64,000 bases of DNA from a virus (lineage: Duplodnaviria > Heunggongvirae > Uroviricota > Caudoviricetes), in the IMG/VR virus record IMGVR_UViG_3300012286_000299, positions 109,277 through 173,276 of that record. One strand, given 5' to 3'. The position numbers and the translations under genes are program-made. Of this stretch, positions 1,733-63,618 are shown in pieces (within the stretch, counting starts at the first letter, position 1; every line of letters starts with the position of its first letter). Below the pieces are notes generated by a model, which worked only from the letters and a program-made list of their open reading frames with translations, was not told where the DNA came from and did not search any database.

Positions 1733-1759
1733 AGAGCTTGCTTACGCAAGCTCTTTTTC
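1733..1759 (+). terminator. rho-independent terminator
   Basis: Perfect hairpin agagcttgc-ttac-gcaagctct followed by a T5 run, which merges into the tcgtatatttaagtat promoter-like motif. Confidence 0.7.
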
Positions 1760-1790
1760 GTATATTTAAGTATATTAATTTAAAATAAAG
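1757..1790 (+). promoter_or_regulatory. conserved phage promoter-like element (ttcgtatatttaagtatatt...aaaggttATG)
   Basis: First of more than 30 copies of the same motif found about 15-35 nt upstream of ORF starts. Confidence 0.5.
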
Positions 1791-1793
1791 GTT

Positions 1794-2054
1794 ATGAAGT
1801 TTTTAAGATTTCTTTTTGGAGTTCTGATAATGCCTGTAATAGGTTGTTTAGAAATTTTTCTAGCAATAATGTTTCTATGTTGGGCATTTAGTGGATTTGG
1901 GTTAATTATGATAGCTATAGATTATACTGATCATAATCATCATTTTACTTGGGTAGGGTATAGTTTAATGGTTTTAGATGCTATAATATTAATACTGTTT
2001 CTATATGAGCATGTAACAAATGTTTACGAAAAAGTTTATAAAAATCAAAATTAA
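1794..2054 (+). CDS. small hydrophobic membrane protein
   Basis: 86-aa ORF with two or more predicted transmembrane helices (FLRFLFGVLIMPVIGCLEIFLAIMFLCWAF...), immediately downstream of the promoter motif. Confidence 0.5.
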   Translation: MKFLRFLFGVLIMPVIGCLEIFLAIMFLCWAFSGFGLIMIAIDYTDHNHHFTWVGYSLMVLDAIILILFLYEHVTNVYEKVYKNQN

Positions 2055-2059
2055 AAGTT

Positions 2060-2413
2060 ATGTTTAAAAAATTATTCGCTTACAAACCAACAGAGCAAGA
2101 ACAGCAGTTTATAGACATTGTTAAAGATTTATTAAATCATCCTGACACTGTAGTGAGAATGTCTTTTTATTCAAGAAAGTACTTTTTGACTAACGAGAAA
2201 AAGCATTACTATATGATGCTACAATGGCCAAATGTACAAGTAACTAATACTAAGTTTTCATTTTGTAAATCAATGCATCCAAAAGCATATGATATAATTT
2301 TAAAATTAGTACATGATTATATTGAAAAAGATCGTCAAGCGTTAGAAGATCATATTTTTGCAAACGAAAATAAAATGCTTGAACAAGTAAGAACTAAATT
2401 ACAATTAGCATAA
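2060..2413 (+). CDS. hypothetical protein
   Basis: 117-aa ORF; its stop overlaps the start of the next gene. Confidence 0.45.
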   Translation: MFKKLFAYKPTEQEQQFIDIVKDLLNHPDTVVRMSFYSRKYFLTNEKKHYYMMLQWPNVQVTNTKFSFCKSMHPKAYDIILKLVHDYIEKDRQALEDHIFANENKMLEQVRTKLQLA

Positions 2414-2652
2414 TGTATACAAAAAATATTTACATAGAAGGATTTTTAACTCGTAATGGGTTTAAAAAAATGAATGAAAATGATTTTGCTAATATGAAAT
2501 GTGTTGTAAAAGTTTTTCCCAAATATTATGAAATAGTATTTAATGATGATGAATTTGGGGAAATGACAATGTATACTGATAATATTTCAATACCTCAATT
2601 AGTAGGTATTTTAACTTGGCACGGTTTAATTGATAAAGATTACAATAAATAA
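2413..2652 (+). CDS. hypothetical protein
   Basis: 79-aa ORF in an ATAATG overlap chain. Confidence 0.4.
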   Translation: MYTKNIYIEGFLTRNGFKKMNENDFANMKCVVKVFPKYYEIVFNDDEFGEMTMYTDNISIPQLVGILTWHGLIDKDYNK

Positions 2653-2927
2653 TGAGAGTAAAACATAGTAAATTTAAAGATTGTGAATTTGTCGTTAGTG
2701 TTGATACTGATGGTAAAAGTTTTACATTAGTAAAAGATCCTTATCCGGCTTATGATGTTAAACCTGATTACTACATTTATTGGAGAAATATAGGAGAAGA
2801 TATTAGAACAGCAGGAAGAACATTATTACGTACTCCTTCAGGACGTAAAGTATCACAAAGTAGAGCTACTAAAATATTACATAATATGATAGCAGCATCA
2901 AAACAACTAACATTTAGCAAATTATAA
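2652..2927 (+). CDS. hypothetical protein
   Basis: 91-aa ORF in an overlap chain. Confidence 0.4.
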   Translation: MRVKHSKFKDCEFVVSVDTDGKSFTLVKDPYPAYDVKPDYYIYWRNIGEDIRTAGRTLLRTPSGRKVSQSRATKILHNMIAASKQLTFSKL

Positions 2928-3160
2928 TGGCAGCACTATCAGACAACAAATACGATGTATTTAATTGGATTATAAAAGTTTATGATTCATGTGAGAATGT
3001 ATCTCAAATAATAACAACAGAAAAATTAATTCGAAACTTTTATAAAATGTACGACGATTATACTTTGTATGATAAGTTACAGGACTATTATTTCGAAGTA
3101 TCAGAAAGACTACAACAAAAAGTAGATAAAAAGACTAGAAAACAAATACTAAAAGGATAA
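2927..3160 (+). CDS. hypothetical protein
   Basis: 77-aa ORF in an overlap chain. Confidence 0.4.
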   Translation: MAALSDNKYDVFNWIIKVYDSCENVSQIITTEKLIRNFYKMYDDYTLYDKLQDYYFEVSERLQQKVDKKTRKQILKG

Positions 3161-3163
3161 ATT

Positions 3164-3565
3164 ATGACATTTATACAGAAATACGTAGACTTTATCTTAG
3201 ATAACATCATACAGGATAATATAAGAGTTCAGCTTTACAAACCTTTTGAAGATGGTTCAAGAATGATTACAAAGATAGGACCTACAGTACATTGTAAAGT
3301 AAAGATTGAAGTAATTGAAAAGTATACACGATCTGCTAAACTAAAACTGACCTTTGATAAATACGAAATCGAAGAACTATTCTTCATACCTTTCAGCTCA
3401 AGTCCAGAATCAATTGAAGGTAAGACACGAACTAAAATTGAAAAGATCGTAAATCAAACTTTCATTGACGATAACAGAACTGAGGATATAAAGCAGATGT
3501 ACGAACAACAACACAAGTTATTAGGAGAAGCACTATCAAAAATAGTAGGTAAGAAAAAAATATGA
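3164..3565 (+). CDS. hypothetical protein
   Basis: 133-aa ORF. Confidence 0.45.
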   Translation: MTFIQKYVDFILDNIIQDNIRVQLYKPFEDGSRMITKIGPTVHCKVKIEVIEKYTRSAKLKLTFDKYEIEELFFIPFSSSPESIEGKTRTKIEKIVNQTFIDDNRTEDIKQMYEQQHKLLGEALSKIVGKKKI

Positions 3566-3912
3566 AGCTAGATAAACAACTCACAACATTAAATCAAGTT
3601 GCTGGTGCTATGTTTTTAGCCAACTCTAGATTTAAAACACAAGCCCATATATCTTCTCAAATGCTAAATCCTGAATGCAATGTAGATCATGAGGAAAGAG
3701 TTAGATATGAAATAATACAAAATCTATCAAAGCATGCAGTTGATACTTTCTCCAAAGAAATTAAAAAACAACAAGTACATGATGGAGAAGTACATTCACT
3801 TGAATTATTTATATTTCCAACTGAAGCATTAAAACTAGCAGTAGAGTACATTATTTCAGAAATGCCACAATCAGAAATAGACAGAATAAGAACAACACCA
3901 ATTTTTATTTAA
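3562..3912 (+). CDS. hypothetical protein
   Basis: 116-aa ORF with an ATGA start/stop overlap. Confidence 0.45.
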   Translation: MKLDKQLTTLNQVAGAMFLANSRFKTQAHISSQMLNPECNVDHEERVRYEIIQNLSKHAVDTFSKEIKKQQVHDGEVHSLELFIFPTEALKLAVEYIISEMPQSEIDRIRTTPIFI

Positions 3913-4002
3913 GATTAAGTAAAATAAAATGGAAAAAGTTTGCTTATTTAGATTTTTCTTCGTATATTTAAGTATTATAAATTTAAAAAATAAATAAAAA
4001 TT

Positions 4003-6273: not shown

Positions 6274-7509
6274 ATGGAAAAGAAAAACAACATAGATTCT
6301 CAGTATATTAAGCTACTAGAGGATATTTTAGAAAATGGTATTAAAAAACAAACAAGAAATGGTGAAACTATTTCAGTATTCGGAAGACAAATACGTCACG
6401 ATATGAAAGACGGTTTTCCGTTGCTTACAACCAAGAAAATGCCGTTCAAAACAATCGTAACAGAACTTCTTTGGTTCTTACGAGGTGATACCAATATTAA
6501 GTATTTGGTTGATAATAATTGTCATATTTGGGATGGTGATGCTTATAAGAATTATATAAATACCGCACCACCTACATTAGATGGGAAGTATTTATCACAA
6601 CCAGAATTTATTCATTGGATAAAAACAGATGATGAGTTTGCTAAGAAGTGGGGTGAGTTAGGTCCAATTTACGGTAAGCAATGGAGAGATATTCCTGTAA
6701 TAAAAGATGGAGATGTAGAAGGTCATAAGATATTAAGTAGTATAGACCAAATCCAAAACCTAATCAACGACCTTAAAACAAATCCAGACTCAAGACGATT
6801 AATGGTTAATGCTTGGAATGTTGGAGAATTAGACCAAATGGTTCTTCCACCTTGTCATTATGGATTTCAAGTTTATACTAGAGAGTTGACTAAACAGGAA
6901 CGTTGGATGGCTTATTGTAATAAATGTAATGAATTAAAAACAGAATCAATTATAGGTTCTACCGATGATAAAGTAATGGAAAGTTATTATCAAGAATATA
7001 ACATACCAACACGAGCAATCTCTTTAATGTGGAATCAACGTTCAGTGGATACATTCTTAGGTTTACCATTTAATATTGCTTCTTATGGATTGTTGTTGGA
7101 AATCATTGCTGAAATCGTTAACATGGTTCCTGACCAATTGATTGGTAATCTTGGTGATACACACTTGTATTCAAATCATATTGAACAAGCAAAAGAACAG
7201 ATTGGAAGAGAGCTTAATGAAGATGAGAGATATGAATTAGTAACCCAGCAAATGAGTAAACTAAGAGCGATCAGAGATGAAGATTACATTAATTACAATA
7301 TTCCAACTAGAACAAGACAACCTTATTCTTTACCTAAAGTAAGAATCAATACTGAATTCTGGAACCCTGGTACAGAAGATGGATGTGGAATGGGACCAGG
7401 AACTTATACAAAAGATATAGGTGCTCTTGTAGAAGGAATGGAAGTAAATGATTTTCAAATTGAGGATTATCAATCACATCCAACAATCAAAGCACCCTTA
7501 TCAAATTAA
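6274..7509 (+). CDS. thymidylate synthase (ThyA) family enzyme with two large insertions (TS, or dUMP hydroxymethylase-type)
   Basis: ThyA motifs are present: LWFLRGDTN, GPIYGKQWR, SRRLMVNAWNVGEL..LPPCH (active-site Cys), QRSVDTFLGLPFNIASY (Asn, hence dUMP-type) and GDTHLYSNHIEQAKEQ, with a ThyA-like C-terminus DFQIEDYQSHPTIKA. It is 411 aa against about 265 aa for ThyA, because of inserts of about 45 aa and about 60 aa. Confidence 0.75.
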   Translation: MEKKNNIDSQYIKLLEDILENGIKKQTRNGETISVFGRQIRHDMKDGFPLLTTKKMPFKTIVTELLWFLRGDTNIKYLVDNNCHIWDGDAYKNYINTAPPTLDGKYLSQPEFIHWIKTDDEFAKKWGELGPIYGKQWRDIPVIKDGDVEGHKILSSIDQIQNLINDLKTNPDSRRLMVNAWNVGELDQMVLPPCHYGFQVYTRELTKQERWMAYCNKCNELKTESIIGSTDDKVMESYYQEYNIPTRAISLMWNQRSVDTFLGLPFNIASYGLLLEIIAEIVNMVPDQLIGNLGDTHLYSNHIEQAKEQIGRELNEDERYELVTQQMSKLRAIRDEDYINYNIPTRTRQPYSLPKVRINTEFWNPGTEDGCGMGPGTYTKDIGALVEGMEVNDFQIEDYQSHPTIKAPLSN

Positions 7510-8378: not shown

Positions 8379-8413
8379 AATAAATTTTGTATATTAAATA
8401 AAAAATAAAAGTT

Positions 8414-9405: not shown

Positions 9406-9882
9406 ATGGGAAAATATCAATCAACAAAATTATTCGAGAACTACTCAGTAGCTATCAGACAATGGAAAGCACAACACTCACATTGTCAATTACTTCACGG
9501 ATATGCTTTAGAATTTAAAGTATGGTTTGAATCAATCGAACCTTTAGAAGAAAATCAATTAGACGAAATGAACTGGATCATGGACTATGGTGGGTTTAAA
9601 GAACAACCACAAGGAAACGGTTTAAAAGCATGGATGGACTATATGTGGGATCATACTCTACTAATCGAGAAAGATGATCCGCAATTAGAAACATTCCAAT
9701 ACATGCAAGAATTAGGTTTGTGTCATTTAAGAGTTATGGATAAGATTGGAGCTGAATCAGCTGCTAAACTAGTCTTCGATAAATTCAATGATGTAATGTC
9801 TAAGAATGGAGGAGGTAGAGTAAAAGTAGTAAAAGTAGAGTGCTGGGAAGCTCCTAAGAATTCATCAATTTATGGAGAGTAA
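9406..9882 (+). CDS. queD: 6-carboxy-5,6,7,8-tetrahydropterin synthase-like (QueD/PTPS family)
   Basis: About 158 aa with a C-x4-HGY..E.K motif (HCQLLHGYALEFKVWFE) resembling the PTPS/QueD Cys-x-His-Gly-His zinc site. Context between QueE-like and FolE genes. Confidence 0.5.
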   Translation: MGKYQSTKLFENYSVAIRQWKAQHSHCQLLHGYALEFKVWFESIEPLEENQLDEMNWIMDYGGFKEQPQGNGLKAWMDYMWDHTLLIEKDDPQLETFQYMQELGLCHLRVMDKIGAESAAKLVFDKFNDVMSKNGGGRVKVVKVECWEAPKNSSIYGE

Positions 9883-10747
9883 ATTTCTACAAGAGAATGG
9901 TTTTTTCGATGATAATACAGGAAAAATATCTCTAGCAGATAAATTAGAAGGTAAAACAAAACAGTATATGAAATTAAAAAGAATAGAAGATTACAACAAA
10001 ATACTGCCGATAGTAGAAGTCTATACAGCAGTACAATCAGAAGGAAGTAGAGCAGGATATCCTACAGTAGTAATTCGAACAAGTGGCTGTACTCACCGCT
10101 GCTGGTTCGGTGAAGGAGGTTGGTGTGATAGTCCATACACATCAATTCATCCAGAGAAAGGGAAATATTCATTCCAGAATATAATTGAAGCATACGACAG
10201 AAATCCTCACATCACAGAGATGATGTTAACTGGAGGATCACCAACAATGCATCCAGCATTAGTAAACGAATTAACACATTTTGCACATGAAAGAGGAATT
10301 TTTATTACTATGGAAACAGAGGGATCACATTACTTGGAAACAGACTTTCCGATTAATTTACTTAGCATTAGCCCTAAGTTTTCAAATTCAATTCCAGCAT
10401 TGGGAACCCGCACTCCAGGCGGTGACATCGTTGATGAAAAGATGGTTAAACAGCATAACAAACTTAGATTAAATTATGATGCAATGTCTAAGTCAATTGC
10501 GTATCATTCTGATTATCACCTGAAACCAGTGTGGGATGGAGAGGATGAAGGAGCATTGAAAGAGATTATGGCTTGCATTAAAATTCTAGATATTCCAGAA
10601 GACAAAGTTTGGTTCATGCCAGCAGGAGATTCAAGAGAGGCTTTATTCAAATCATATCCTAAAATGTTTGATTGGGTAAGAGATAATGGATATAGATTGA
10701 CTTGGAGACCACACATCATTGCATTTGAAGATAAAAGAGAAGTATAA
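9872..10747 (+). CDS. queE: radical-SAM 7-carboxy-7-deazaguanine synthase-like (QueE)
   Basis: Cys triad in SGCTHRCWFGEGGWCDSPY (non-canonical spacing, as known for some QueE), a glycine-rich SAM motif MLTGGSPTMHP, and a position adjacent to queD/folE. Confidence 0.6.
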   Translation: MESKFLQENGFFDDNTGKISLADKLEGKTKQYMKLKRIEDYNKILPIVEVYTAVQSEGSRAGYPTVVIRTSGCTHRCWFGEGGWCDSPYTSIHPEKGKYSFQNIIEAYDRNPHITEMMLTGGSPTMHPALVNELTHFAHERGIFITMETEGSHYLETDFPINLLSISPKFSNSIPALGTRTPGGDIVDEKMVKQHNKLRLNYDAMSKSIAYHSDYHLKPVWDGEDEGALKEIMACIKILDIPEDKVWFMPAGDSREALFKSYPKMFDWVRDNGYRLTWRPHIIAFEDKREV

Positions 10748-10803
10748 TATCATTTGGATATTAAAATAGAATTTATTACATTTACCTATTAAAAAAATTA
10801 TAA

Positions 10804-11499
10804 ATGACAGAAAATAGAAAAAAAGTCCACAACGATTTAGAAGTGGTACAAGTGGGATTTGCTAATGGTGTAGCACCTGGATTTCCCCTAAATGAGATTG
10901 AAAAACAAGGTATGATTGAGCAGGCTGCTGAAGCCTATGGTCAGTTTTTAACAGCATTAGGTTGTGATTGGAAAAATGATCCTAATAGTGCTGATACACC
11001 AAGACGTGTAGCTAAAGCCTATGTTAACGATCTATGGAAAGGTAGATATACTCCAATGTCTGAAATTACTTCATTCCCAAGTGATGGTTATGATGGGATT
11101 GTGATTGAAAGAAATATCCCTTTAACATCAATGTGTTCACATCACCACCAAACAATTGGAGGGGTAGTTCATATTGGGTATGTGGTAGGTGAAAATGGTA
11201 GAGTAATTGGTTTATCTAAATTAAACCGAATTGTAGAGCATTTTGGGCGTAGAGGTGCTATTCAAGAACAATTAACCTCTGCTATTCATCAAGCTGTAGA
11301 TAAAATTTGTGAAAATAATAGAGGTGTAATAGTTTCTATTGTTGGTACTCACAATTGCGTTTCTTGTAGAGGTGTTAAGCATCAAGGTGCTTCAATGATT
11401 ACAACTAAAGCATCAGGTGTTTTTATGGAGAATGGAAACTTAGCAAGAGAAGAATTCTTTGATTCAATTAAAATTAATAATGGTAATCATCCAGTATAA
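10804..11499 (+). CDS. folE: GTP cyclohydrolase I
   Basis: SMCSHHHQTIGGVVHIGYV matches the FolE zinc-site/active-site block (SMCEHH...VHIAY) in a 231-aa protein. Confidence 0.8.
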   Translation: MTENRKKVHNDLEVVQVGFANGVAPGFPLNEIEKQGMIEQAAEAYGQFLTALGCDWKNDPNSADTPRRVAKAYVNDLWKGRYTPMSEITSFPSDGYDGIVIERNIPLTSMCSHHHQTIGGVVHIGYVVGENGRVIGLSKLNRIVEHFGRRGAIQEQLTSAIHQAVDKICENNRGVIVSIVGTHNCVSCRGVKHQGASMITTKASGVFMENGNLAREEFFDSIKINNGNHPV

Positions 11500-11903
11500 T
11501 GGCTTTAAGAATTCATAATAAAATTTATTTAGGTTGGGATGATATTAATGATTTAATTGATACATTATGTTCAAAAATTATTACTGATCTTCCTAATATT
11601 GATTCAGTTCATGGTATAAAACGCGGTGGGTTAATTCCTGCCGTGTTGGTATCACATAAATTAGGTTTACCGTGGTCTGACGTGATGTTACCTAATACTT
11701 TAGTAATAGATGATATTTGTGATACTGGAGTTACTTTAAAAAATACAGTTGGAACTTATACGGCTGCTTTACATTATAAACCTCATACTTCTTGTTTTAT
11801 ACCTAATATTTATGCCCACGAACATAAAGGTGATGAATGGATTATCTACCCTTGGGAAAGAAAAGATTCAGAATCTATACAAGATTATTTAAAAACAAAA
11901 TAA
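11499..11903 (+). CDS. phosphoribosyltransferase (type I PRT) domain protein
   Basis: PRPP-binding motif LVIDDICDTGVTLK (compare HGPRT VVDDIVDTGGT) in a 134-aa protein. TAATG-coupled to folE. Confidence 0.5.
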   Translation: MALRIHNKIYLGWDDINDLIDTLCSKIITDLPNIDSVHGIKRGGLIPAVLVSHKLGLPWSDVMLPNTLVIDDICDTGVTLKNTVGTYTAALHYKPHTSCFIPNIYAHEHKGDEWIIYPWERKDSESIQDYLKTK

Positions 11904-11907
11904 AAAC

Positions 11908-12099
11908 ATGGCAAAAACTGAACAAATTCTCCAAATTACAGAAGTTATTTCAAATTTAGGAAAAGATCTTTTATCTGCAAATGAATCTAAAACAAATGCA
12001 TCATCTGAAGATCTACTTTTAATAGAACAAAATATTCAATATCTTGAAACTGTTTTACAAGAACATAAAGATAAACTTCAACAACTTATTTCTGAATAA
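11908..12099 (+). CDS. hypothetical protein (coiled-coil)
   Basis: 63-aa ORF. Confidence 0.35.
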   Translation: MAKTEQILQITEVISNLGKDLLSANESKTNASSEDLLLIEQNIQYLETVLQEHKDKLQQLISE

Positions 12100-12102
12100 T
12101 AA

Positions 12103-12492
12103 ATGACAGAAAATTTTGATCCAAATGCTCCTTCAAGAGGATTAGGTGATACAATTGCTAAATTTACTCATACAACTGGTATAGCTAAAGCTGTAGAAGT
12201 TGTAACGGGTGCTTTAGGAATAGAAGATTGTGGTTGTGGAAGAAGACAAGAATGGGTTAATAATTTAATTCCATATGAGAATCAGCCCAACCATAATGTT
12301 CAATATGATCCTAATAATGCTACAGAAGTAGAAGAAGGGATATATGAGGTAATGTATGAGATCCATGCTACTAAAGAAGGTAATAAATTTGATTACAAAG
12401 TAGGTGAAAAAATTTTGATAAATGAAAATCATTTATTATATTCAAATTGGCCTTATTATATAATGATAGGCGCAGTTAAAAAACAAAATTAA
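12103..12492 (+). CDS. hypothetical protein
   Basis: 129-aa ORF. Confidence 0.45.
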   Translation: MTENFDPNAPSRGLGDTIAKFTHTTGIAKAVEVVTGALGIEDCGCGRRQEWVNNLIPYENQPNHNVQYDPNNATEVEEGIYEVMYEIHATKEGNKFDYKVGEKILINENHLLYSNWPYYIMIGAVKKQN

Positions 12493-12501
12493 ATTAAAGT
12501 T

Positions 12502-16075: not shown

Positions 16076-16076
16076 T

Positions 16077-18214: not shown

Positions 18215-18299
18215 AAATCTAAGCCCTTAGGTTAAGTTTTATTTGGAGATTCAAGAAAAATTTATTATATTATATAATAAAAATTTAATTATAAAAGTT

Positions 18300-20538: not shown

Positions 20539-20560
20539 GGAGTCTCGAAAGAGACTCCAT
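20539..20560 (+). terminator. intrinsic terminator after groEL
   Basis: Hairpin ggagtctc-gaaa-gagactcc followed by an A/T-rich tract. Confidence 0.55.
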
Positions 20561-20573
20561 ATATTAAAAAGTT

Positions 20574-21485
20574 ATGTTCAATAAAAAACACACTATTTGG
20601 GTAGAAAAATACAGACCAGATACTTTAGAAGGGTATATTGGTAATGAATTTTTTGTAGAGAAATTAAATCAATGGGTAGGAGATAATGATATCCCTCATC
20701 TATTACTTACAGGTCCTGCTGGTACAGGAAAAACAACTGCTGCTAAATTAATAGTAAATAATATTAATTGTGATTTTATCTACATTAATTGTTCAGATGA
20801 AAATGGTGTTGATACTATTAGAGATAAAGTAAAATCGTTTGTTTCCGCTGCTAGTTTTAAACCACTTAAAGTGGTTATAATGGATGAAGCAGATTTCTTA
20901 ACACTTAATGCTCAAGCATCTTTAAGAAACGTAATTGAAACTTATAGTTTAAATGCTCGTTTTATATTTACTTGTAATTTTGTAGAAAGAATTATGGAAC
21001 CAATTCAATCTAGAACAAATATATTTGAATTAATGCCTCCTTCTATGCAAGATGTAGCATTCAAATGTGTTGAAATTTTAGATTTAGAAAAAATTACTTA
21101 TACTAGAGCAGATATAGTAAGAATTGTAAAACAAACTTACCCTGATATTAGAAAGTGTTTAAACTTACTCCAAATATCTATTAGAAATGGAGAATTAATT
21201 GAAAGTAGAACTTCATCTAATTTTAAACAAACCTCTGACCAAGTAATAGAATTACTTAAAACTAAAAACGTTAAAAACTTTACTGCTATAAGACAGTTAG
21301 TAATGGATTCTAATGTTAGAGATTACAACGAGTTATATAGAGTATTATTTGAAAGAGCAGATGAATTTAATGAATCTGCTGTTACTACTCTTATAATAGC
21401 TGATTACCAACACAAATCAATTATGGCACCTGATAAAGAAATTACATTTTGTGCCTGTATCGCTAAATTATTAACAACTAAATAA
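20574..21485 (+). CDS. clamp-loader AAA+ ATPase (RFC/gp44-like)
   Basis: Walker A LLLTGPAGTGKTT, Walker B VVIMDEADFLT and sensor IQSRTNIF (an SRC-like SRT). Confidence 0.75.
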   Translation: MFNKKHTIWVEKYRPDTLEGYIGNEFFVEKLNQWVGDNDIPHLLLTGPAGTGKTTAAKLIVNNINCDFIYINCSDENGVDTIRDKVKSFVSAASFKPLKVVIMDEADFLTLNAQASLRNVIETYSLNARFIFTCNFVERIMEPIQSRTNIFELMPPSMQDVAFKCVEILDLEKITYTRADIVRIVKQTYPDIRKCLNLLQISIRNGELIESRTSSNFKQTSDQVIELLKTKNVKNFTAIRQLVMDSNVRDYNELYRVLFERADEFNESAVTTLIIADYQHKSIMAPDKEITFCACIAKLLTTK

Positions 21486-25102: not shown

Positions 25103-25774
25103 ATGGATTATCAAAGAATTTACAACCAATTAATAGAAAAAGCTCAAAGTAGAACCTTAGAAGGTTATATTGAAAAACATCATATTATCCCTAAATGTCT
25201 AGGAGGAAGTAATGATAAAGAAAATTTAGTAGAATTAACAGCAAGAGAACATTTTTTATGTCATATGTTACTTTGTGAGATTTATCCTAAAGAAAATAAA
25301 CTAAAACATGCCTTATTTTTAATGTCTATTGGTAAACAAAGGATTAAAGAAAAACATTATGTTGTTGGTTCTAGAGTTTATGAAAGGCTTAAAACTGAAT
25401 ATTCTCAATTTTTAACAGGTAAAAAACAATCACAAGAAACTAAAGATAAAAAGAGTAAAGCTATGTTAGGAATTTGGGAAGATAAAACCCAAGAAGAAAA
25501 ATCTAAGATAGGACAAAAAAGATGGGACACTAGAATCAAAAATGGGACTACTAATATTAAAAGTATTAATAGAAGTAAATCATTAAAGGGTAGAGAAATT
25601 ACATGGGACCGAGGAGTTAATAAAATCATTATTCAATATGATAAACAAAATAACTTTATTAAAGAATGGTCTAGTATATCAGAAGCTCAAAGGCAAATAG
25701 GAGGGGATATTAAAGGTGCTTTAGCAGGGAGGCAAAAAACTGCTGCAGGTTTTATTTGGAAATACAAAAACTAG
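25103..25774 (+). CDS. HNH homing-type endonuclease
   Basis: EKHHIIPKCLGGSNDKENLVELTAREHFLCH (HNH core) plus a C-terminal IENR/NUMOD-like region. Sits between two glycosyltransferase genes. Confidence 0.6.
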   Translation: MDYQRIYNQLIEKAQSRTLEGYIEKHHIIPKCLGGSNDKENLVELTAREHFLCHMLLCEIYPKENKLKHALFLMSIGKQRIKEKHYVVGSRVYERLKTEYSQFLTGKKQSQETKDKKSKAMLGIWEDKTQEEKSKIGQKRWDTRIKNGTTNIKSINRSKSLKGREITWDRGVNKIIIQYDKQNNFIKEWSSISEAQRQIGGDIKGALAGRQKTAAGFIWKYKN

Positions 25775-25797
25775 TTATTATATTAAAATAAAAAAAA

Positions 25798-38210: not shown

Positions 38211-38235
38211 TTCTTCGTATATTATAAGGTAAATC
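38211..38235 (+). promoter_or_regulatory. conserved promoter-like element
   Basis: ttcttcgtatattataaggtaaat, 10 nt upstream of the ATG at 38243. Confidence 0.45.
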
Positions 38236-38242
38236 AAAAATT

Positions 38243-39453: not shown

Positions 39454-39470
39454 GGCTCCCTAAGGGAGCC
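39454..39470 (+). terminator. intrinsic terminator hairpin fused to a promoter-like motif
   Basis: ggctccc-taa-gggagcc followed by tttgtatatt. Confidence 0.5.
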
Positions 39471-39507
39471 TTTGTATATTTAACATTATAAATTTAAAAC
39501 AATAAAA

Positions 39508-41658: not shown

Positions 41659-41662
41659 AAAG

Positions 41663-41700
41663 AGGCTTGTTAATTCAAGCCTTTCTTCGTATATTATATC
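41663..41700 (+). promoter_or_regulatory. terminator hairpin (aggcttg-ttaatt-caagcct) fused to promoter-like ttcttcgtatattatatc
   Basis: Hairpin immediately after the stop at 41658, with the motif 19 nt upstream of the ATG at 41719. Confidence 0.5.
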
Positions 41701-41718
41701 AAATTAAAATAATAAGTT

Positions 41719-43403: not shown

Positions 43404-43442
43404 CTAAAAATTCTTCGTATATTAAATCAAAATTAAAAGGTT

Positions 43443-44996: not shown

Positions 44997-45037
44997 ATTA
45001 AACTTCGTATATTTAATCAAATAAAAAGATAAAGGTT

Positions 45038-47433: not shown

Positions 47434-47484
47434 AATTATTAAAACTTTCTTCGTATATTTAAGTATAATTTTAAAAATAAAATA

Positions 47485-47897: not shown

Positions 47898-47899
47898 TT

Positions 47900-48501: not shown

Positions 48502-48504
48502 GTT

Positions 48505-48861: not shown

Positions 48862-48901
48862 TTTTCGTATATTTAATTATAATTTTAAACAAATAAAGTT
48901 T

Positions 48902-49443: not shown

Positions 49444-49567
49444 ATTTGATTATATAAATTTTTCTTCGTATATTAAATCATTAGAAATTTAAAAATTAAG
49501 GTTGATACTACCTTTGCAAAAATAGTATTAGATAAATAAAAACAAGTTATAAATTAAAAACAAAAAA

Positions 49568-50407: not shown

Positions 50408-50424
50408 TAAAAATACTCAAAGAG

Positions 50425-50460
50425 GGGCTTGTTAATACAAGCCTTTCTTTGTATATTAAA
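50425..50460 (+). promoter_or_regulatory. terminator hairpin (ggcttgt-taat-acaagcc) fused to a promoter-like motif
   Basis: Same architecture as at 41663. Confidence 0.5.
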
Positions 50461-50473
50461 TCAAATAAAATAT

Positions 50474-51546: not shown

Positions 51547-51553
51547 ACAACTA

Positions 51554-51730
51554 ATGACTGAAAGAAAACAAATTATTCAGCAAGTAAAAGAGTTAGGTAT
51601 CAAAACTGATAAACCTGCTCATATGTGCACTACATCTTATCTTAAAGGGTTATTACCTAAAGAAGAAGTTAAACAAGAAGAAGTTAAAATTGGGTTTTTT
51701 AAGAAGGTTTTAAGAGGATTAGGCTTTTAA
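51554..51730 (+). CDS. small protein with a Rho-N/SAP-like N-terminal domain
   Basis: 58-aa ORF. MTERKQIIQQVKELGIKTDKPAHMCTTSYLKGLL parallels the N-terminus of the 59038 gene (MNRIEIIAEVKKLGLTTEKPAHQCKTDYLQQVL). Confidence 0.35.
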   Translation: MTERKQIIQQVKELGIKTDKPAHMCTTSYLKGLLPKEEVKQEEVKIGFFKKVLRGLGF

Positions 51731-51765
51731 AGCCTTTCTTCGTATATTAAAGCATTATTAATTTA
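51721..51765 (+). promoter_or_regulatory. terminator hairpin (aggcttt-taa-agcct) fused to promoter-like ttcttcgtatattaaagcattattaa
   Basis: Motif 17 nt upstream of the ATG at 51778. Confidence 0.5.
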
Positions 51766-52575: not shown

Positions 52576-52579
52576 TAAT

Positions 52580-52625
52580 AAAGGGCCTGGAATAGGGCCC
52601 TTTAAATTTTCTTCGTATATTTAAT
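52580..52625 (+). promoter_or_regulatory. terminator hairpin (aaagggcc-tggaatag-ggcccttt) fused to promoter-like ttcttcgtatatttaat
   Basis: GC-rich stem right after the stop, with the motif upstream of the ATG at 52638. Confidence 0.55.
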
Positions 52626-52637
52626 AAAATAAAGGTT

Positions 52638-53075: not shown

Positions 53076-53116
53076 AATAATCTTCGTATATTTAATTATA
53101 ATTAAAAATAAAGGTT

Positions 53117-54396: not shown

Positions 54397-54436
54397 AATA
54401 TAACTTCGTATATTAAAGCATAATTAAAATATAAAT

Positions 54437-54669: not shown

Positions 54670-54729
54670 AATAAATTTGTTTTATTAAAATTTACTTAGT
54701 ATATTAAATCATAATTAAAATAATAAGTT

Positions 54730-55297: not shown

Positions 55298-55367
55298 AGT
55301 CAGGTAGTGTAATGGTAGCACCCGGAGGTCACACTTCTAGAACAGGTTCGAATCCTGTCCTGACTAC
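55298..55367 (+). tRNA. tRNA-like gene 1 (anticodon not confidently assigned; possibly CAC)
   Basis: Perfect 7-bp acceptor stem AGTCAGG/CCTGACT, D-arm GTGT-AATGGTA-GCAC with a GG D-loop, and a canonical T-arm ACAGG-TTCGAAT-CCTGT. The anticodon stem is irregular by hand folding. Confidence 0.5.
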
Positions 55368-55582: not shown

Positions 55583-55638
55583 CTATAACAATATAAGTGT
55601 TTCATAACCACTTATTATTTTTAATTATGCCCGTAATT

Positions 55639-55700
55639 AGCCCCGAAAGGGGCTATTACTTTATTTGGAGGGTATAAATTAAATTCGTATATTTATTACA
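55639..55700 (+). promoter_or_regulatory. terminator hairpin (agcccc-gaaa-ggggct) followed by promoter-like gagggtataaattaaattcgtatattt
   Basis: GC-rich stem-loop plus the conserved motif downstream of the tRNA-like genes. Confidence 0.5.
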
Positions 55701-55711
55701 AATAAAATAAA

Positions 55712-55849: not shown

Positions 55850-55932
55850 TATATTTATAAGGGTCCTTATTTAGTTTCTTTGAGTGTTTAAAACTAATTC
55901 GTATATTAAAGTATAATTAAAAAATAAAGGTT

Positions 55933-56524: not shown

Positions 56525-56566
56525 AATTAACTTAGTATATTAAAGTATATTAATAATTAAAAAGTT

Positions 56567-57100: not shown

Positions 57101-57136
57101 CTTCGTATATTTAAGCATAATTAAAATAATAAAGTT

Positions 57137-57382
57137 ATGGCAAGAGGAGAAGGAACAATTACCTATGATGGTGTAGAAATTGATATTGAATTCCAATATG
57201 AACCTTTAGTAAGAGGTAGAATGTGGATGGACAATGGTGACCCAGGTTACCCTGATGAAGGAGGTGAATTCTATATTGAAAAAGCATTCATTGGAGGGCA
57301 AGATGTAACTGATTTACTTGGTGAAGACAAGCTAGAATCAATAGCTGAAGCCTATCAAGAAAAACATGGTGGGGAATATTAA
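57137..57382 (+). CDS. hypothetical protein
   Basis: 81-aa ORF with promoter motif 57099-57125. Confidence 0.45.
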   Translation: MARGEGTITYDGVEIDIEFQYEPLVRGRMWMDNGDPGYPDEGGEFYIEKAFIGGQDVTDLLGEDKLESIAEAYQEKHGGEY

Positions 57383-57446
57383 TTCCCTGTCGTGTTTATT
57401 ATAAATTTACCTCGTATATTAAAGCATAATTAAAATAAGAAAAGTT

Positions 57447-57859: not shown

Positions 57860-57897
57860 GAGGTATAAATTAACTTCGTATATTAAGGCATAATTAA
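57860..57897 (+). promoter_or_regulatory. extended conserved element gaggtataaattaacttcgtatattaaggcataattaa
   Basis: About 40-nt element recurring with 90% or greater identity at 58224, 58583, 59809, 60680, 61138, 61584, 61902 and 62683. Confidence 0.55.
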
Positions 57898-58222: not shown

Positions 58223-58274
58223 TAAGGTATAAATTAACTTCGTATATTAAGGCATAATTAAAATATTAAATGTT

Positions 58275-58571: not shown

Positions 58572-58637
58572 TAAGGCATTTTGAGGTATAAATTAACTTC
58601 GTATATTAAAGTATAATTAAAATAAATAATTAAGGTT

Positions 58638-58952: not shown

Positions 58953-59037
58953 ATCAAGGTAGTTGAGGGACAAAAATAAATTCGTATATTTAAAACATAT
59001 TAATAATAAAAAAGTTTAATTTTAAAATTTAAAGGTT

Positions 59038-59499
59038 ATGAACAGAATTGAAATCATTGCAGAAGTAAAAAAATTAGGTTTAACAACAGAAAAACCTGCG
59101 CACCAATGTAAAACTGATTACTTACAACAAGTATTAGATGCACACTATGCAACTAGTGTTGAAGTAAAACAGAAAGGTAGACCTGTGAATGAAAACAGTG
59201 AACGCCAAAAACGACTTGCTGAATTAGAAGCAAAACGTGAAGCAGGTGAACTACGTAAAGGTAGACCAGTAGTGGAAGGTAGTGCTCGTCAAGTGAGATT
59301 ATCACTTAAAGGTACATTGCCATTAGGTAGAAAACCAAATCCTGAAAGCGCTGCTTACAAACGTAAAATGGAATTGGAAGCAAAACGTGCTGCGGGTGAA
59401 CTAAAAAGAGGTAGACCAGCACAAGTAAAAGAAGCAGCTGAACCAGTAGCAGCTCAAGTAGAAGCGCCTGCAGCAGCAGAGCCACAAACTGAAGTATAA
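59038..59499 (+). CDS. DNA-binding protein with three AT-hook motifs and a Rho-N/SAP-like N-terminal domain
   Basis: KGRPVNEN, KGRPVVEG and RGRPAQVK (AT-hook GRP cores flanked by basic residues), with an Ala/Glu-rich tail. The gene has locally elevated GC. Confidence 0.5.
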   Translation: MNRIEIIAEVKKLGLTTEKPAHQCKTDYLQQVLDAHYATSVEVKQKGRPVNENSERQKRLAELEAKREAGELRKGRPVVEGSARQVRLSLKGTLPLGRKPNPESAAYKRKMELEAKRAAGELKRGRPAQVKEAAEPVAAQVEAPAAAEPQTEV

Positions 59500-59568
59500 G
59501 AATTAATTACAGAAAAGGGACATGACGATTAGTTATGTCCCTTACTTTAACCCTTAATCAGTATATAT

Positions 59569-59805
59569 TTGAAAAGACATACAGTAATTAGCAAAAAATA
59601 TGTTGAAACCTACAAAAATTACCCTAAAGCAAAACCCAAACCACAATATATAATTGGGTGTGTTTATTATGGAAGAAACCGCTCAAATCATTTAAAATTA
59701 GGCATACTAACCTTATTTGGTGATAGGGTATCAACTTTAAAAACTAAAGATGGTAAATTGGTTAAAGTTAAAAATAACACTCTAAAAAGCGCTCAAACAG
59801 GGTAG
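59569..59805 (+). CDS. hypothetical basic protein
   Basis: 78-aa ORF, duplicated identically at 60440..60676. Confidence 0.4.
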   Translation: MKRHTVISKKYVETYKNYPKAKPKPQYIIGCVYYGRNRSNHLKLGILTLFGDRVSTLKTKDGKLVKVKNNTLKSAQTG

Positions 59806-60055
59806 TTTGAGGTATAATTTAACTTCGTATATTAAAGTATAATTAATAAATACATTATTATGGTAAAAGTAGTTAAATCAGGCATCACATATTATGAGGT
59901 AAATTTAGGTAGTATATCTCTAATTGCATTTGAACCACAGGAATTAGTTATTAGCAACAGAAAAACCTGCGCACCAATGTAAAACTGATTACTTACAACA
60001 AGTATTAGATGCACACTATGCAACTAGTGTTGAAGTAAAACAGAAAGGTAGACCT

Positions 60056-60370
60056 GTGAATGAAAACAGTGAACGCCAAAAACGACTTGCTGAATTAGAA
60101 GCAAAACGTGAAGCAGGTGAACTACGTAAAGGTAGACCAGTAGTGGAAGGTAGTGCTCGTCAAGTGAGATTATCACTTAAAGGTACATTGCCATTAGGTA
60201 GAAAACCAAATCCTGAAAGCGCTGCTTACAAACGTAAAATGGAATTGGAAGCAAAACGTGCTGCGGGTGAACTAAAAAGAGGTAGACCAGCACAAGTAAA
60301 AGAAGCAGCTGAACCAGTAGCAGCTCAAGTAGAAGCGCCTGCAGCAGCAGAGCCACAAACTGAAGTATAA
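60056..60370 (+). pseudogene. 5'-truncated second copy of the AT-hook gene (lacks the original start and N-terminal domain)
   Basis: Identical to the 3' 417 nt of 59038..59499. The track ORF uses an internal Met. Confidence 0.5.
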
Positions 60371-60439
60371 GAATTAATTACAGAAAAGGGACATGACGAT
60401 TAGTTATGTCCCTTACTTTAACCCTTAATCAGTATATAT

Positions 60440-60676
60440 TTGAAAAGACATACAGTAATTAGCAAAAAATATGTTGAAACCTACAAAAATTACCCTAAAG
60501 CAAAACCCAAACCACAATATATAATTGGGTGTGTTTATTATGGAAGAAACCGCTCAAATCATTTAAAATTAGGCATACTAACCTTATTTGGTGATAGGGT
60601 ATCAACTTTAAAAACTAAAGATGGTAAATTGGTTAAAGTTAAAAATAACACTCTAAAAAGCGCTCAAACAGGGTAG
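60440..60676 (+). CDS. hypothetical basic protein (duplicate copy of 59569..59805)
   Basis: 100% identical to 59569..59805. Confidence 0.4.
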   Translation: MKRHTVISKKYVETYKNYPKAKPKPQYIIGCVYYGRNRSNHLKLGILTLFGDRVSTLKTKDGKLVKVKNNTLKSAQTG

Positions 60677-60864
60677 TTTGAGGTATAATTTAACTTCGTA
60701 TATTAAAGTATAATTAATAAATACATTATTATGGTAAAAGTAGTTAAATCAGGCATCACATATTATGAGGTAAATTTAGGTAGTATATCTCTAATTGCAT
60801 TTGAACCACAGGAATTAGTTATTAGAATGGTAAACATGAATATATCACTAAACTAATAAAGGTT

Positions 60865-61128: not shown

Positions 61129-61192
61129 TGGTCGTTTGAGGTATAAATTTACTTCGTATATTTAAGCATATTAATAATTAAAATATAATGTT

Positions 61193-61563: not shown

Positions 61564-61634
61564 AAAATTAATTATGGTATGTGAGGGTTAAATATAACCT
61601 CGTATATTTAAGTATAATTAATAAATAAAACATC

Positions 61635-61901: not shown

Positions 61902-61950
61902 GATTAGCTTCGTATATTAAGGTATAATTAATAATAAAAACATAAAGGTT

Positions 61951-62316
61951 ATGAAAAAAGTTGTAAAAAAAGCATCACAGGTTAAGGTATCTATTACCCA
62001 CAAAACATTAATGGTGAATTTCGAGTTCCCAATTGTAGTAGGACAAGTTAAGATAATTGCTATTGGTCTAGCTCATGTTTATAAGGGTGATGAATCAGGA
62101 CAAATTGAAGCAGATATCGATTTTATGGATTATGGGGAAACAACCTATATGGACATGCCTGTTGAGGGGTATGAGGGTGTGAAAAAGTTAAAGGAAATGC
62201 ACAAAGGATTTGGTATTGACTTAGGTACCCTAATTGATAATGAATTCAATAAGGTTGTAACAGAGGAATTCAAAACCGAATTCCTAAAACAATTCGACGT
62301 TAGAATGTTTGAATAA
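61951..62316 (+). CDS. hypothetical protein
   Basis: 121-aa ORF with promoter motif 61902-61940. Confidence 0.45.
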   Translation: MKKVVKKASQVKVSITHKTLMVNFEFPIVVGQVKIIAIGLAHVYKGDESGQIEADIDFMDYGETTYMDMPVEGYEGVKKLKEMHKGFGIDLGTLIDNEFNKVVTEEFKTEFLKQFDVRMFE

Positions 62317-62323
62317 TAAAAAT

Positions 62324-62376
62324 AAGCCCCGGAATGGGGCTTATAAATTTTACTTCGTATATTTAAGTATAATTAA
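62324..62376 (+). promoter_or_regulatory. terminator hairpin (agcccc-ggaat-ggggct) fused to promoter-like tacttcgtatatttaagtataattaa
   Basis: Same terminator-promoter architecture as elsewhere in the window. Confidence 0.55.
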
Positions 62377-62387
62377 AAATTAAGGTT

Positions 62388-62705
62388 ATGTTAAATACAA
62401 CTTATTTAGGAAGAGAAATCACTAGACGTGATAATGTTAAAGTAGAAGGTACATTCCAATCATTTTATGAGGCATCAAAACGTTTGATGGGGATGGGTTA
62501 TATAATGGGAAGCATGTGTGGAGATGAACCAATAGGGTTTGCCGATGCAGACAAATACGAGTATATTGCCAAATGGAGAAACATTGACCCGAGCGATAGA
62601 GTAAAAGTGGACGGGGTAATGATCAGTAGTGACTGGAGAGAGGGTAGTGTTGAAATAATATGGTTTAAAGAGCCATTAAATAAGGCAGTAGCGGGTATAA
62701 ATTAA
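62388..62705 (+). CDS. hypothetical protein
   Basis: 105-aa ORF. Confidence 0.45.
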   Translation: MLNTTYLGREITRRDNVKVEGTFQSFYEASKRLMGMGYIMGSMCGDEPIGFADADKYEYIAKWRNIDPSDRVKVDGVMISSDWREGSVEIIWFKEPLNKAVAGIN

Positions 62706-62742
62706 CTTCGTATATTGAGGTATAATTAAAAAAGTAAACGTT

Positions 62743-63087
62743 ATGGTAAAAGAAATTACTGCAATAGATAAACTGATTGCTATTGAGGAAATGCTTGTTA
62801 AAATGAGGTATGACACTACAGGAATGAGTGTGAGCCAAGCACTGGAAATAATGAAGGCAACGGTAAAGGCTATTGATAAAGCAAAATTACCCTCAAACAC
62901 GATTTACCCTATGACACGAGACGATTTATACAAAATAATGGATTCAGAAAACTATACGGTGGACGAGATCAAAGATTCAGTGTATATGGGGAACAGAATA
63001 ACCACTATATTGGAGAATGAGGACGTGGAGATAGATGACGAACAGGTAAAGGTGTTGGTGGTAGAGTACCAAAATGCTAGAGCATAG
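62743..63087 (+). CDS. hypothetical protein
   Basis: 114-aa ORF with promoter motif 62683-62719. Confidence 0.45.
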   Translation: MVKEITAIDKLIAIEEMLVKMRYDTTGMSVSQALEIMKATVKAIDKAKLPSNTIYPMTRDDLYKIMDSENYTVDEIKDSVYMGNRITTILENEDVEIDDEQVKVLVVEYQNARA

Positions 63088-63370
63088 TAATGTTAAACCA
63101 TTCCAATATCTAAAGATATCGTAATGTGGAAACTTATTCCTAGTATATTGGGGTAACGGACAAATGTTCCGGCGGTAACGCTTAATAGTATAGTTGTATG
63201 TGGAAATTGGGTTAAATTGGGGTGGATAATAGGGCAGGGTCTCCGCTCCCCTGCCCCGTTATGGAATAACTTTCCTCCCTACCTCCCTTGTATATACAAT
63301 TTTTAATGGAACTAGGTGGAACAAATCAACTTCGTATATTATAGTATATTAATAATTAAACAACTATATT

Positions 63371-63553
63371 ATGATAAAGTTTGAGGTTTACCCAAGTGTT
63401 AGATTACAAGCACACCAATTGTTAATCAATTCGAACCGTTTGAAAAGTGTATTTTATAATACTGGAAATACTTTCCTAATTGACCCCGTTGATTTACCTC
63501 GTTGTAAGGAAATACTTACCAAACGAATGATTAAATTAAAGGTAGTTAATTAA
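63371..63553 (+). CDS. hypothetical protein
   Basis: 60-aa ORF with promoter motif 63327-63359. Confidence 0.4.
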   Translation: MIKFEVYPSVRLQAHQLLINSNRLKSVFYNTGNTFLIDPVDLPRCKEILTKRMIKLKVVN

Positions 63554-63618
63554 GGTAATAGGGGAATAAAAATCCCTTCGTATATTATAGTATAATAAAA
63601 AATATAAAATTAAAGGTT

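Follow-up and report, generated by a model that had tools for sequence, protein, structure and literature searches.

Small genes of a large phage related to Flavobacterium phage vB_FspM_immuto (immuto) are preceded by a short repeated DNA element, and the repeats are probably early promoters that are read by the primary sigma factor of the host and arranged in cassettes of the promoter-early stem-loop (PeSL) type. The element was analysed in 64,000 nt of the IMG/VR virus record IMGVR_UViG_3300012286_000299 (positions 109,277 to 173,276), a stretch referred to throughout as the window and numbered from its first letter. An initial annotation of this DNA had described a conserved element before more than 30 genes, and all 33 of the coordinates it listed match real copies, with offsets of 0–15 nt because counting sometimes began at an upstream extension. 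Its view of a promoter-like signal, combined with a terminator in a compact unit, is retained here; its proposal that host-type boxes are absent, and that the element thus forms a phage-specific promoter class, is not. The placement and conservation of the copies support an expression signal that is strand-specific, strictly intergenic and promoter-like in its behaviour. No earlier description of the motif was found in literature searches on the motif string, on immuto or on flavobacterial phage promoters.

The copies occupy one strand and avoid genes. At three or fewer mismatches, the 23-mer TTCGTATATTNAAGTATAATTAA has 22 matches in the window, all on the + strand, compared to 0.03 expected from dinucleotide shuffles. 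A position weight matrix scan of the window yields 29 strong matches on the + strand and one weak match on the − strand. Coding sequence makes up 91% of the window, yet the 29 strong copies all fall outside it (0 nt of overlap); the motif is thus far from being equally frequent within coding sequence, the outcome that the initial annotation had named as fatal to its idea. The start codon (ATG) mostly lies 10–21 nt downstream of the 23-mer end. Sites beyond the earlier list include: (i) weak or core-only copies at 8386, 20556 and 39471, and (ii) bare TTTGG-N19-20-TAyATTwA sites at about 10753, 18243 and 25755. The signal, 17–40 nt in length, precedes about 36 genes, and the site statistics below refer to 36 sites, both copies of an 871-bp duplication included; 31 of the 36 fall within 41–64 kb, between open reading frames (ORFs) that are mostly of 50–150 aa and without known function. 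The octamer TATATTWA is by itself strongly enriched in intergenic DNA, with 38 of its 54 + strand copies in the window being intergenic and only 24 copies present on the − strand.

The element is conserved well beyond the window, as judged from a comparison with over 150 loci of IMG/VR and with immuto. In IMG/VR, a scan for the exact pattern identifies at least 119 viral stretches, many with multiple copies. Among the 127 loci listed (119 viral stretches and 8 bacterial), 82 share proteins with the window, all of them viral, and the other 37 viral loci among the matches listed have the same architecture. The immuto genome carries about 30 copies of GTTGc-N16-TTC(G/A/T)TATATTTAGGTAT followed by CAATAATTAAAAC in its small-ORF region, a repeat that in compact form reads GTTGc-N16-TTCnTATATTTAGGTAT, then CAATAATT. 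To avoid selection on the motif, 80 IMG/VR loci were fetched via DUF932 homology alone (42–85% aa identity). In these loci, the relaxed core has 92 matches on the gene strand compared to 3 on the opposite strand, and the 8-mer CGTATATT has 268 versus 26. The element is upstream of the DUF932 orthologues in nearly all of 61 distinct upstream sequences. Its conserved form in relatives consists of T-T/A-G-G, a 15–16 nt spacer, and TTCG-TATATT(T/A)A-(A/C/G)G.

When the octamer TATATT(T/A)A is set as −12..−5, the conserved positions of the otherwise unconstrained flanks in relatives are T−35, G−33, G−32, TT at −16/−15, T/A at −6/−5 and G−3, of which G−33 and G−32 are the most informative. Information content drops towards background after about −3/+1, just past the G that follows the box. 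A total of 17 contiguous positions (the 17-nt core, TTCGTATATTTARGTAT) are kept among relatives with only about 45% protein identity, and the bipartite search form of the element is TTGG-N16-TTCGTATATT. By contrast, the TATAAT block that the initial annotation took as the key element is not conserved. Its equivalent in immuto is GGTATCAATAATT (TATCAA), while the IMG/VR relatives have GTATTAT, GTATAAG, GTATAGA or CGGGGTAAATAAGG at this position, elsewhere a shifted GTAAATAAGG, and TAAATA is also among the replacements. GTAT is directly repeated at 10-bp spacing in the window and in immuto; in the GC-richer relatives, the second GTAT moves 1–4 nt relative to the box. The GC-richer relatives L139–L211 also have a conserved block, AGTAATGC(A/G)C(A/G)GG, before their DUF932 orthologues. 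This block precedes the hairpin/−33 region at a distance of about 40–55 nt from TTCG, and may belong to the end of the preceding gene, act as an UP-like element or be bound by a regulator.

The upstream extension GAGGTATAAATTAAC, noted by the initial annotation for the copies at 57.8–62.8 kb, is indeed present there but is rare in relatives (14 of 913 instances). For this reason, its interpretation as a second, T4-late-like promoter is rejected. The distribution is more likely to reflect the recent local spread of one cassette than an additional functional box.

The geometry of the core is that of a primary-sigma promoter. In Bacteroidota, promoters of sigma-ABfr, the primary sigma factor (Bayley 2000; Baez 2019, PMC6847099; Guérin 2021, PMC9723704; Ryan 2020, PMC7366714), consist of a −33 TTTG and a −7 TAnnTTTG box at −12..−5, with transcription starting 4–5 nt past the box (PMC6847099, PMC9723704; also PMC7366714). 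The near-invariant bases are T−12, A−11, T−8, T−7, T−6 and G−5 (PMC6847099, PMC9723704). With the window octamer at −12..−5, a T is at −35, G-G at −33/−32 and TTCG at −16..−13, and the gap from G−33 to T−12 is exactly 20 nt. T(T/A)G is found at exactly −35..−33 in 19 of the 36 window sites, including nearly all sites at 1.7–55.7 kb. The box matches TAnnTTTG at 7 of 8 positions when its variable base is T and at 6 of 8 when it is A, compared to 5 of 6 for the sigma-70 TATAAT. The element shares with sigma-ABfr promoters T−12, A−11, T−8 and T−7, the TTG at −35..−33, the 20 nt from G−33 to T−12, and short A-rich (here predicted) leaders devoid of a Shine-Dalgarno sequence; T−6 is shared by most relatives but by only about half of the window copies. 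It differs in having A in place of the near-invariant G−5, additional invariants (TTCG at −16..−13 and G−3) and a conserved G−32. The statement of the initial annotation that there is neither a sigma70 −35 nor a Bacteroidetes −7 box is therefore not sustained, and arose because it was anchored on the wrong (TATAAT) block.

The functional core would accordingly comprise T-T/A-G-G (−35..−32), a 15–16 nt spacer, TTCG (−16..−13), TATATT(T/A)A (−12..−5) and (A/G)G (−4, −3), with the host sigma-A holoenzyme as its presumed reader. The sites before replication and sugar genes retain only TTTGG-N19-20-TAyATTwA. This pattern suggests that the bipartite core is essential, whereas TTCG and AAGTAT would be extras typical of the promoters of small ORFs, which are presumably the early class. 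Transcription is predicted to start 4–5 nt past the box, in GTAT, and to generate an A-rich leader of about 17–26 nt that ends in AAA(G/A)GTT-ATG. The fading of conservation at this predicted start lends it indirect support. The predicted start-to-ATG distance is narrow (mostly 17–26 nt) and within the range of leaders reported for flavobacteria (PMC9723704). Genes that directly follow the motif share the start context AAA(G/A)GTT-ATG (e.g., at 1794, 43443, 51778, 53117 and 55933), which is also seen in immuto and the IMG/VR relatives; GTT precedes the ATG in 22 of 32 motif-following genes versus 13 of 91 other window genes. The starts of motif-following genes have no Shine-Dalgarno-like spacing, and the shared context differs both from a Shine-Dalgarno sequence and from the A−3 'Kozak-like' context described in Flavobacterium.

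Several other promoter assignments were considered for the same DNA. The core coordinates can also be read in sigma-70 terms as TTG-N17-TATAtT, and sigma-70 consensus sites are not enriched in the window (97 found versus 106 expected). A sigma-70 promoter anchored on TATAAT is rejected, as this block is not conserved in relatives and the DNA 17 nt upstream of it is A-rich with no TTG. A promoter of an extracytoplasmic function (ECF) sigma factor (−35 AAC/−10 CGT) is likewise rejected; CGT is present (in TTCGTA), but TTGG is 18 nt upstream, GGAA-like bases are 20 nt upstream and AAC is not conserved. The 23-mer as a host consensus promoter common throughout bacteria is rejected on the basis of 8 matches in 596 Gb, obtained with a pattern that includes the variable 3' part.

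Certain observations weigh against a promoter of the host primary sigma factor, including: (i) A is at −5 in essentially every copy of the window, immuto and the IMG/VR relatives, whereas G−5 is near-invariant in mapped Flavobacterium promoters (PMC6847099), (ii) TTCG and G−3 are invariant and have no described role in sigma-ABfr promoters, (iii) the copies at 55.9–63.6 kb have the TTG moved by 1–2 nt or missing, (iv) the canonical TAnnTTTG is not enriched in intergenic DNA of the window (6 of 46, several of which are the motif's own −33 TTTG), (v) bacterial genomes totalling 596 Gb contain the 23-mer at close to its chance frequency (8 matches), a count made with a pattern over-specified in its non-conserved 3' part, and (vi) the association of synteny breakpoints with the motif is weak, as 34% of junction ends versus 24% of gene starts are near a motif in a crude and noisy global test, which is not decisive because most gene boundaries of the region carry the motif anyway.

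Terminator hairpins are often joined to the element. A hairpin of −8 kcal/mol or lower is upstream of 12 of the 36 sites, and in 8 of these the 3' arm of the stem ends within about 8 nt of TTCG, in agreement with the 'about 8' abutting hairpins counted earlier. A scan of 44–64 kb for terminator-like structures identifies 21 sites versus 7.2 expected. In relatives, such hairpins accompany 35% of the sites, compared to 18% in shuffled sequence; of the 62 stems, 42 have their 3' end at offsets −1..+1 from TTCG. The −33 TTG is usually within the 5' arm of the stem, while TTCGTATATTT supplies the T-rich tail. The compact terminator-promoter unit of the initial annotation, in which the T-tract is the promoter core, is thus correct for roughly a third of the copies; most copies are without a hairpin. 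In these fused units, the intrinsic-terminator hairpin of the upstream transcription unit would occupy the −33/spacer segment and the T-rich TTCGTATATTT would double as its tail, to form a compact insulator.

Of the systems described to date, the PeSL cassettes of T4-type phages appear closest, and by analogy the element may work in a similar manner. PeSLs are composites of terminator, promoter and translation start that are located between the small ORFs of hyperplastic regions (Arbiol et al. 2010, PMC2839356; Comeau et al. 2014, PMC4122927); they are implicated in modular shuffling and have a promoter consensus that differs by phage group (PMC4122927). Similarly to PeSLs, the element can link a stem-loop terminator to a presumed early promoter of host type and to the start signals of the small ORF that follows, and it is present in dozens of near-identical copies in gene orientation that are concentrated among small variable ORFs. 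In several examples, copies also border indels or rearrangements between related phages. By contrast, the promoter is of the TTGG/TATATTTA type with TTCG, rather than TTGACA/TATAAT-like, and the hairpin overlaps the −33 element and spacer instead of being upstream of the −35. The element further differs from PeSLs by the AAA(G/A)GTT-ATG context in place of a Shine-Dalgarno sequence, its occurrence in an immuto-like lineage rather than the Straboviridae, a host phylum that is probably Bacteroidota, a hairpin in only about a third of the copies, and evidence for recombination that derives from few junctions.

The promoters of T4 itself provide two further points of reference. T4 early promoters form a sigma-70 'super-consensus', and the element resembles them as a large set of presumed host-sigma promoters, longer and more uniform than the host consensus, that would drive small early genes of a phage with no RNA polymerase of its own; the sigma type and sequence differ, and the early timing is presumed for the element. 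T4 late promoters (TATAAATA) depend on gp55/gp33/gp45 and have in common with the element an AT-rich 8-mer at about −10, and immuto also has a −33-less version, ttcgTATATTTAtaataa, before structural genes. By contrast, the element has a conserved −33 segment, and phmmer detects no gp55 homologue. A second promoter-like motif of immuto, (ttcg)TATATTTAtaataa, has no −33 TTG, often directly follows a terminator hairpin and precedes structural (late) genes (e.g., record positions 90659, 125519, 128570, 130566 and 149758 of immuto, L129+L128+L130+L131). Similar sites are at about 23391 and 25073 in the window, and the family may use this motif as its late-promoter class.

A phage-specific promoter class, read by a phage sigma or appropriation factor or by a phage RNA polymerase and of middle type like those of T4 MotA/AsiA, SPO1 gp28 or T4 gp55, is an unlikely but serious alternative to a host-read promoter. 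The departures from the host consensus (A−5, invariant TTCG and G−3) are systematic, and the 23-mer is present in at least 119 viral stretches yet at chance level in bacterial genomes. A BLAST search of a 44-nt, motif-containing window consensus against 50,697 cultured phage records finds immuto as the only clear match, and most window ORFs are without known function, such that an unrecognised factor could be present. Of the phage factors that the initial annotation had suggested looking for, an RNA polymerase or sigma factor has, however, not come to light: Pfam and PHROG scans of 57 window ORFs (70 queries, 13 ORFs in both) find no sigma factor or RNA polymerase, none is annotated in the 160-kb immuto genome, and phmmer finds no match to T4 gp55, with the proviso that a divergent factor could escape such scans. 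In addition, T-T/A-G-G is exactly at −35..−32 and the box at −12..−5 with primary-sigma geometry. The motif also precedes the small ORFs of a hyperplastic region; the corresponding genes of T4-like phages are transcribed first and therefore need the unmodified host enzyme.

A bacterial genome provides a further argument against a dedicated phage factor, as a member of the Flavobacteriaceae has a copy within an integrated but unrelated element. This perfect 23-mer copy, TTCGTATATTTAAGTATAATTAA, is in Leeuwenhoekiella marinoflava DSM 3653 (NZ_FQUN01000007; L120 3213–3235, − strand, identical to L066), with a hairpin upstream and an ATG 20 nt downstream, in a region labelled provirus by IMG/VR. 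It precedes a 132-aa ORF, a RadC-like ORF and a methylase-like ORF (named by eye), none of which resembles window proteins. The sequence context suggests that the motif works in other, unrelated mobile elements of Flavobacteriaceae as well.

The invariant flanks TTCG and (A/G)GTAT could alternatively form an operator, atop an ordinary host promoter, through which a phage or host DNA-binding protein switches an early regulon. This arrangement is improbable. It would account for 17 contiguous conserved positions at about 45% protein identity, a longer stretch than sigma factors by themselves usually specify, as well as for the recurrence of GTAT at 10-bp spacing and the weaker promoters of replication and sugar genes that lack exactly these flanks. 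The RNA polymerase of Escherichia coli makes sequence-specific contacts at the extended −10, the discriminator and the core recognition element. The −16..+1 segment coincides with such polymerase contacts, so that an extra protein is not required; no candidate regulator is identified, and the 1–4 nt shift of the second GTAT in GC-richer relatives is ill suited to a rigid operator of two half-sites.

It is very unlikely that the element acts instead at the RNA level, as a processing site, ribosome-loading leader or stability element in polycistronic early transcripts. Strand specificity, intergenic location, the fixed distance to the start codon and the conserved AAA(G/A)GTT-ATG would all fit such a role. 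The fixed-length spacer of variable sequence between TTGG and the box is, however, a signature of DNA recognition, the terminator hairpin directly upstream of many copies means that read-through RNA would often be without the motif, and conservation stops before the leader starts. Rfam covariance models match the window solely at a tRNA (55298–55366) and not at the motif, and no consistent RNA structure that involves the core is seen. It is scarcely credible that the repeats have nothing to do with expression and only record recent duplication or serve recombination. One copy is within the 871-bp perfect tandem duplication, and the 57.8–62.8 kb copies with their rare extension have probably spread recently; most copies, however, have unrelated flanks, and in hundreds of contigs (proteins of 42–45% identity) the core stays constant, always in gene orientation and with a set distance to a start codon.

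As host-read promoters of PeSL type, the cassettes (about 40–60 nt) that flank most small early genes would also offer short homology for recombination. The genes they bound are gained, lost and reordered among relatives, as described for the PeSL cassettes of T4-type phages. Loci L132 and L051 lack window positions 47,496–50,444, a 2.95-kb block between the copies at 47450 and 50448, and the L132 alignment jumps from the 47.4-kb flank to the 50.4-kb flank within the motif. In L134 and L022, the ligase, DUF932 and several small genes are in a different order, and the ends of the blocks are at motif copies.

The perfect 871-bp tandem duplication (59080–59950 and 59951–60821) carries one promoter copy and covers most of ORF 59038–59499, which itself has 150-nt internal repeats. 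It could be a real recent event or an assembly artefact. A motif-mediated origin is rejected, since the junctions are within coding sequence and not at motif copies.

Table 1. Promoter sites and associated hairpins of the window (window coordinates, all on the + strand). The position given for a full promoter core is offset 0, the first T of TTCG.
Position	Element	Hairpin	Downstream gene or context
1757..1779	full core; TTG at −35..−33		ATG 1794
1729..1758	terminator hairpin	−17.8 kcal/mol; 5' arm contains −33 TTG, 3' arm reaches TTCG
3959..3981	full core		ATG 4003
8386..8408	weak variant TTTGTATATTAAAT		ATG 8414
10753..10785	bare −33/−7 variant, TTTGG-N19-TACATTTA; no TTCG or AAGTAT		before FolE
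18243..18275	bare −33/−7 variant, TTTGG-N19-20-TATATTAT		just upstream of ORFs preceding GroEL
20540..20578	core-only variant, TTTGG, TATATTAA	spacer hairpin 20540–20557	before clamp-loader gene, ATG 20574
25755..25786	bare −33/−7 variant, TTTGG-N19-TATATTAA		before glycosyltransferase gene 25798
38214..38236	weak variant; TTTGG at −36..−32		ATG 38243; 38211 in the initial annotation
39454..39493	weak variant TTTGTATATTTAAC	39454–39470, −13.9 kcal/mol	ATG 39508
41661..41708	full core 41686	41661–41684, −12.2 kcal/mol	ATG 41719
43414..43436	full core		before CCA/poly(A)-polymerase-like gene, ATG 43443
45004..45026	full core		ATG 45038
47450..47472	full core		left edge of 2.95-kb block absent from relatives L132, L051
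48864..48886	full core		ATG 48902
49465..49487	full core		next long ORF (SPFH/Band 7) from 49568
50420..50470	core 50448	50420–50449, −17.7 kcal/mol	right edge of 2.95-kb indel
51703..51761	full core 51739	51703–51737, −15.1 kcal/mol	before DUF932 gene, ATG 51778
52579..52634	weak core 52612	terminator 52579–52604	before endonuclease V-like gene
53083..53105	full core		ATG 53117
54405..54427	full core		ATG 54438 (short ORF)
54696..54718	full core, TTAG variant		ATG 54730
55638..55706	weak core 55684	terminator 55638–55655; second predicted stem 55657–55674	ATG 55712
55898..55920	full core		ATG 55933
56532..56554	full core, TTAG variant		ATG 56567
57102..57124	full core		ATG 57137
57366..57433	core 57411, CTCG variant	57366–57393	ATG 57447
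57860..57897	core 57875; lineage-specific upstream extension GAGGTATAAATTAAC
58224..58261	core 58239; upstream extension
58580..58620	core 58598; upstream extension
58981..59003	weak variant		ATG 59038; 58980 in the initial annotation
59789..59846	core 59824	59789–59813	within 871-bp tandem duplication
60660..60717	core 60695	60660–60684	duplicate copy
61135..61175	core 61153; upstream extension
61599..61621	core, CTCG variant		ATG 61635
61909..61931	core		ATG 61951
62322..62376	full core 62354	terminator 62322–62344, −15 kcal/mol	ATG 62388
62707..62729	core		ATG 62743
63331..63353	core		ATG 63371
63560..63599	core 63577	short, 63560–63578, overlapping the core	ATG 63619

The window is an AT-rich piece (about 29% GC) of a large phage, with all genes on the + strand. 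Its genes include: (i) replication and chaperone genes, namely a family B DNA polymerase (PolB) in two ORFs, a T4-type clamp loader, DNA ligase, GroEL and Hsp20, (ii) a long ThyA-like gene, FolE/QueD/QueE for 7-deazaguanine and a block of glycosyltransferase and sugar genes, and (iii) CCA/poly(A)-polymerase-like, DUF932, SPFH and endonuclease V and VII genes, together with a long run of small ORFs without known function. No close DNA relative is present among 50,697 phage records. The nearest cultured relative by protein similarity and gene order is immuto (160 kb, host Flavobacterium sp. LMO8), which is syntenic and has an aa identity to the window of 53% for GroEL, 41% for DUF932, 87% for QueE and 57% for ThyA. 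The window probably derives from a large myophage, T4-like in parts, of the Flavobacterium phage immuto family, and its host is most likely a member of the Flavobacteriia; the perfect motif copy in Leeuwenhoekiella points to the same group of hosts.

Several neighbouring genes are of interest in their own right. The chaperone cluster (17807–20531) encodes Hsp20 (17807–18214) and GroEL (18891–20531), and a 97-aa ORF (18595–18888) occupies the slot of GroES in immuto. The PolB gene (13540–17012 region) is split into ORFs 14085–15812 and 16077–17012, which are separated by an ORF of 87 aa; the gene immediately upstream encodes an HNH endonuclease. At the syntenic position, immuto encodes a family A polymerase, a difference that fits the polymerase swapping published for the immuto phage group (PMC11348598). 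Genes of the HNH/endonuclease VII type are found in 50799–51549, 37536–38192, 25103–25774 and 13540–14085; L132 and L051, both close relatives, lack the one at 50911–51546, a pattern that fits the insertion of a mobile homing endonuclease. The tRNA gene recognised by Rfam (55298–55367, 44.8 bits) is in a 423-nt gap between small ORFs, and ARAGORN does not assign its anticodon.

Two enzymes of the window may act on DNA precursors and on the host. The thymidylate-synthase-like protein (6274–7509, 411 aa) aligns over 328 residues to 247 positions of a 266-position Pfam model, which implies an insertion of about 80 aa; the insertion is also present in immuto (57% identity). The protein may be a pyrimidine-modifying enzyme rather than a plain ThyA. 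At 47–1111, a 354-aa protein has a PARP-type ADP-ribosyltransferase catalytic domain. The T4 ADP-ribosyltransferases Alt and ModA modify host RNA polymerase and favour early promoters, and by this analogy the PARP-type protein is a candidate host-takeover enzyme.

The chemistry of the template may be relevant to the departures of the element from the host consensus. In immuto virion DNA, every G is replaced by 7-(formylamino)methyl-7-deazaguanine (fdPreQ1) (PMC10516641). The window has a 7-deazaguanine cluster (9406–13026) of QueD (9406–9882), QueE (9872–10747), FolE (10804–11499), a phosphoribosyltransferase (11499–11903) and a MazG-like protein (12502–13026). This precursor pathway is syntenic with that of immuto, which shares FolE/QueD/QueE, with QueE 87% identical. 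DpdA, QueC, QueF and DpdN are not within the window; where immuto has DpdA, the window encodes an unknown protein of 140 aa and an HNH endonuclease. With DNA of this kind, the template for early transcription would have no ordinary G. It is tempting, if rather doubtful, to speculate that the family-wide loss of G−5, together with the invariant G at −33/−32, −13 and −3, represents a promoter dialect for 7-deazaguanine DNA. If true, such a dialect could allow the polymerase, native or phage-modified, to distinguish phage from host DNA.

The promoter model that results is precise enough to be testable, with about 36 sites in the window and hundreds among relatives. It applies to large flavobacterial phages of a family that is widespread but has hardly any cultured members. 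Its 17-nt core can serve as a marker for the annotation of early genes and for the recognition of family members in metagenomes. The PeSL idea, in which regulatory cassettes are recombination points for small accessory genes, would be extended to another phage lineage and to the promoter grammar of another host phylum. The A−5, TTCG and G−3 positions would be either unrecognised determinants of promoter strength in Bacteroidota, useful for expression tools, or a sign that promoter recognition is linked to a template fully modified with 7-deazaguanine.

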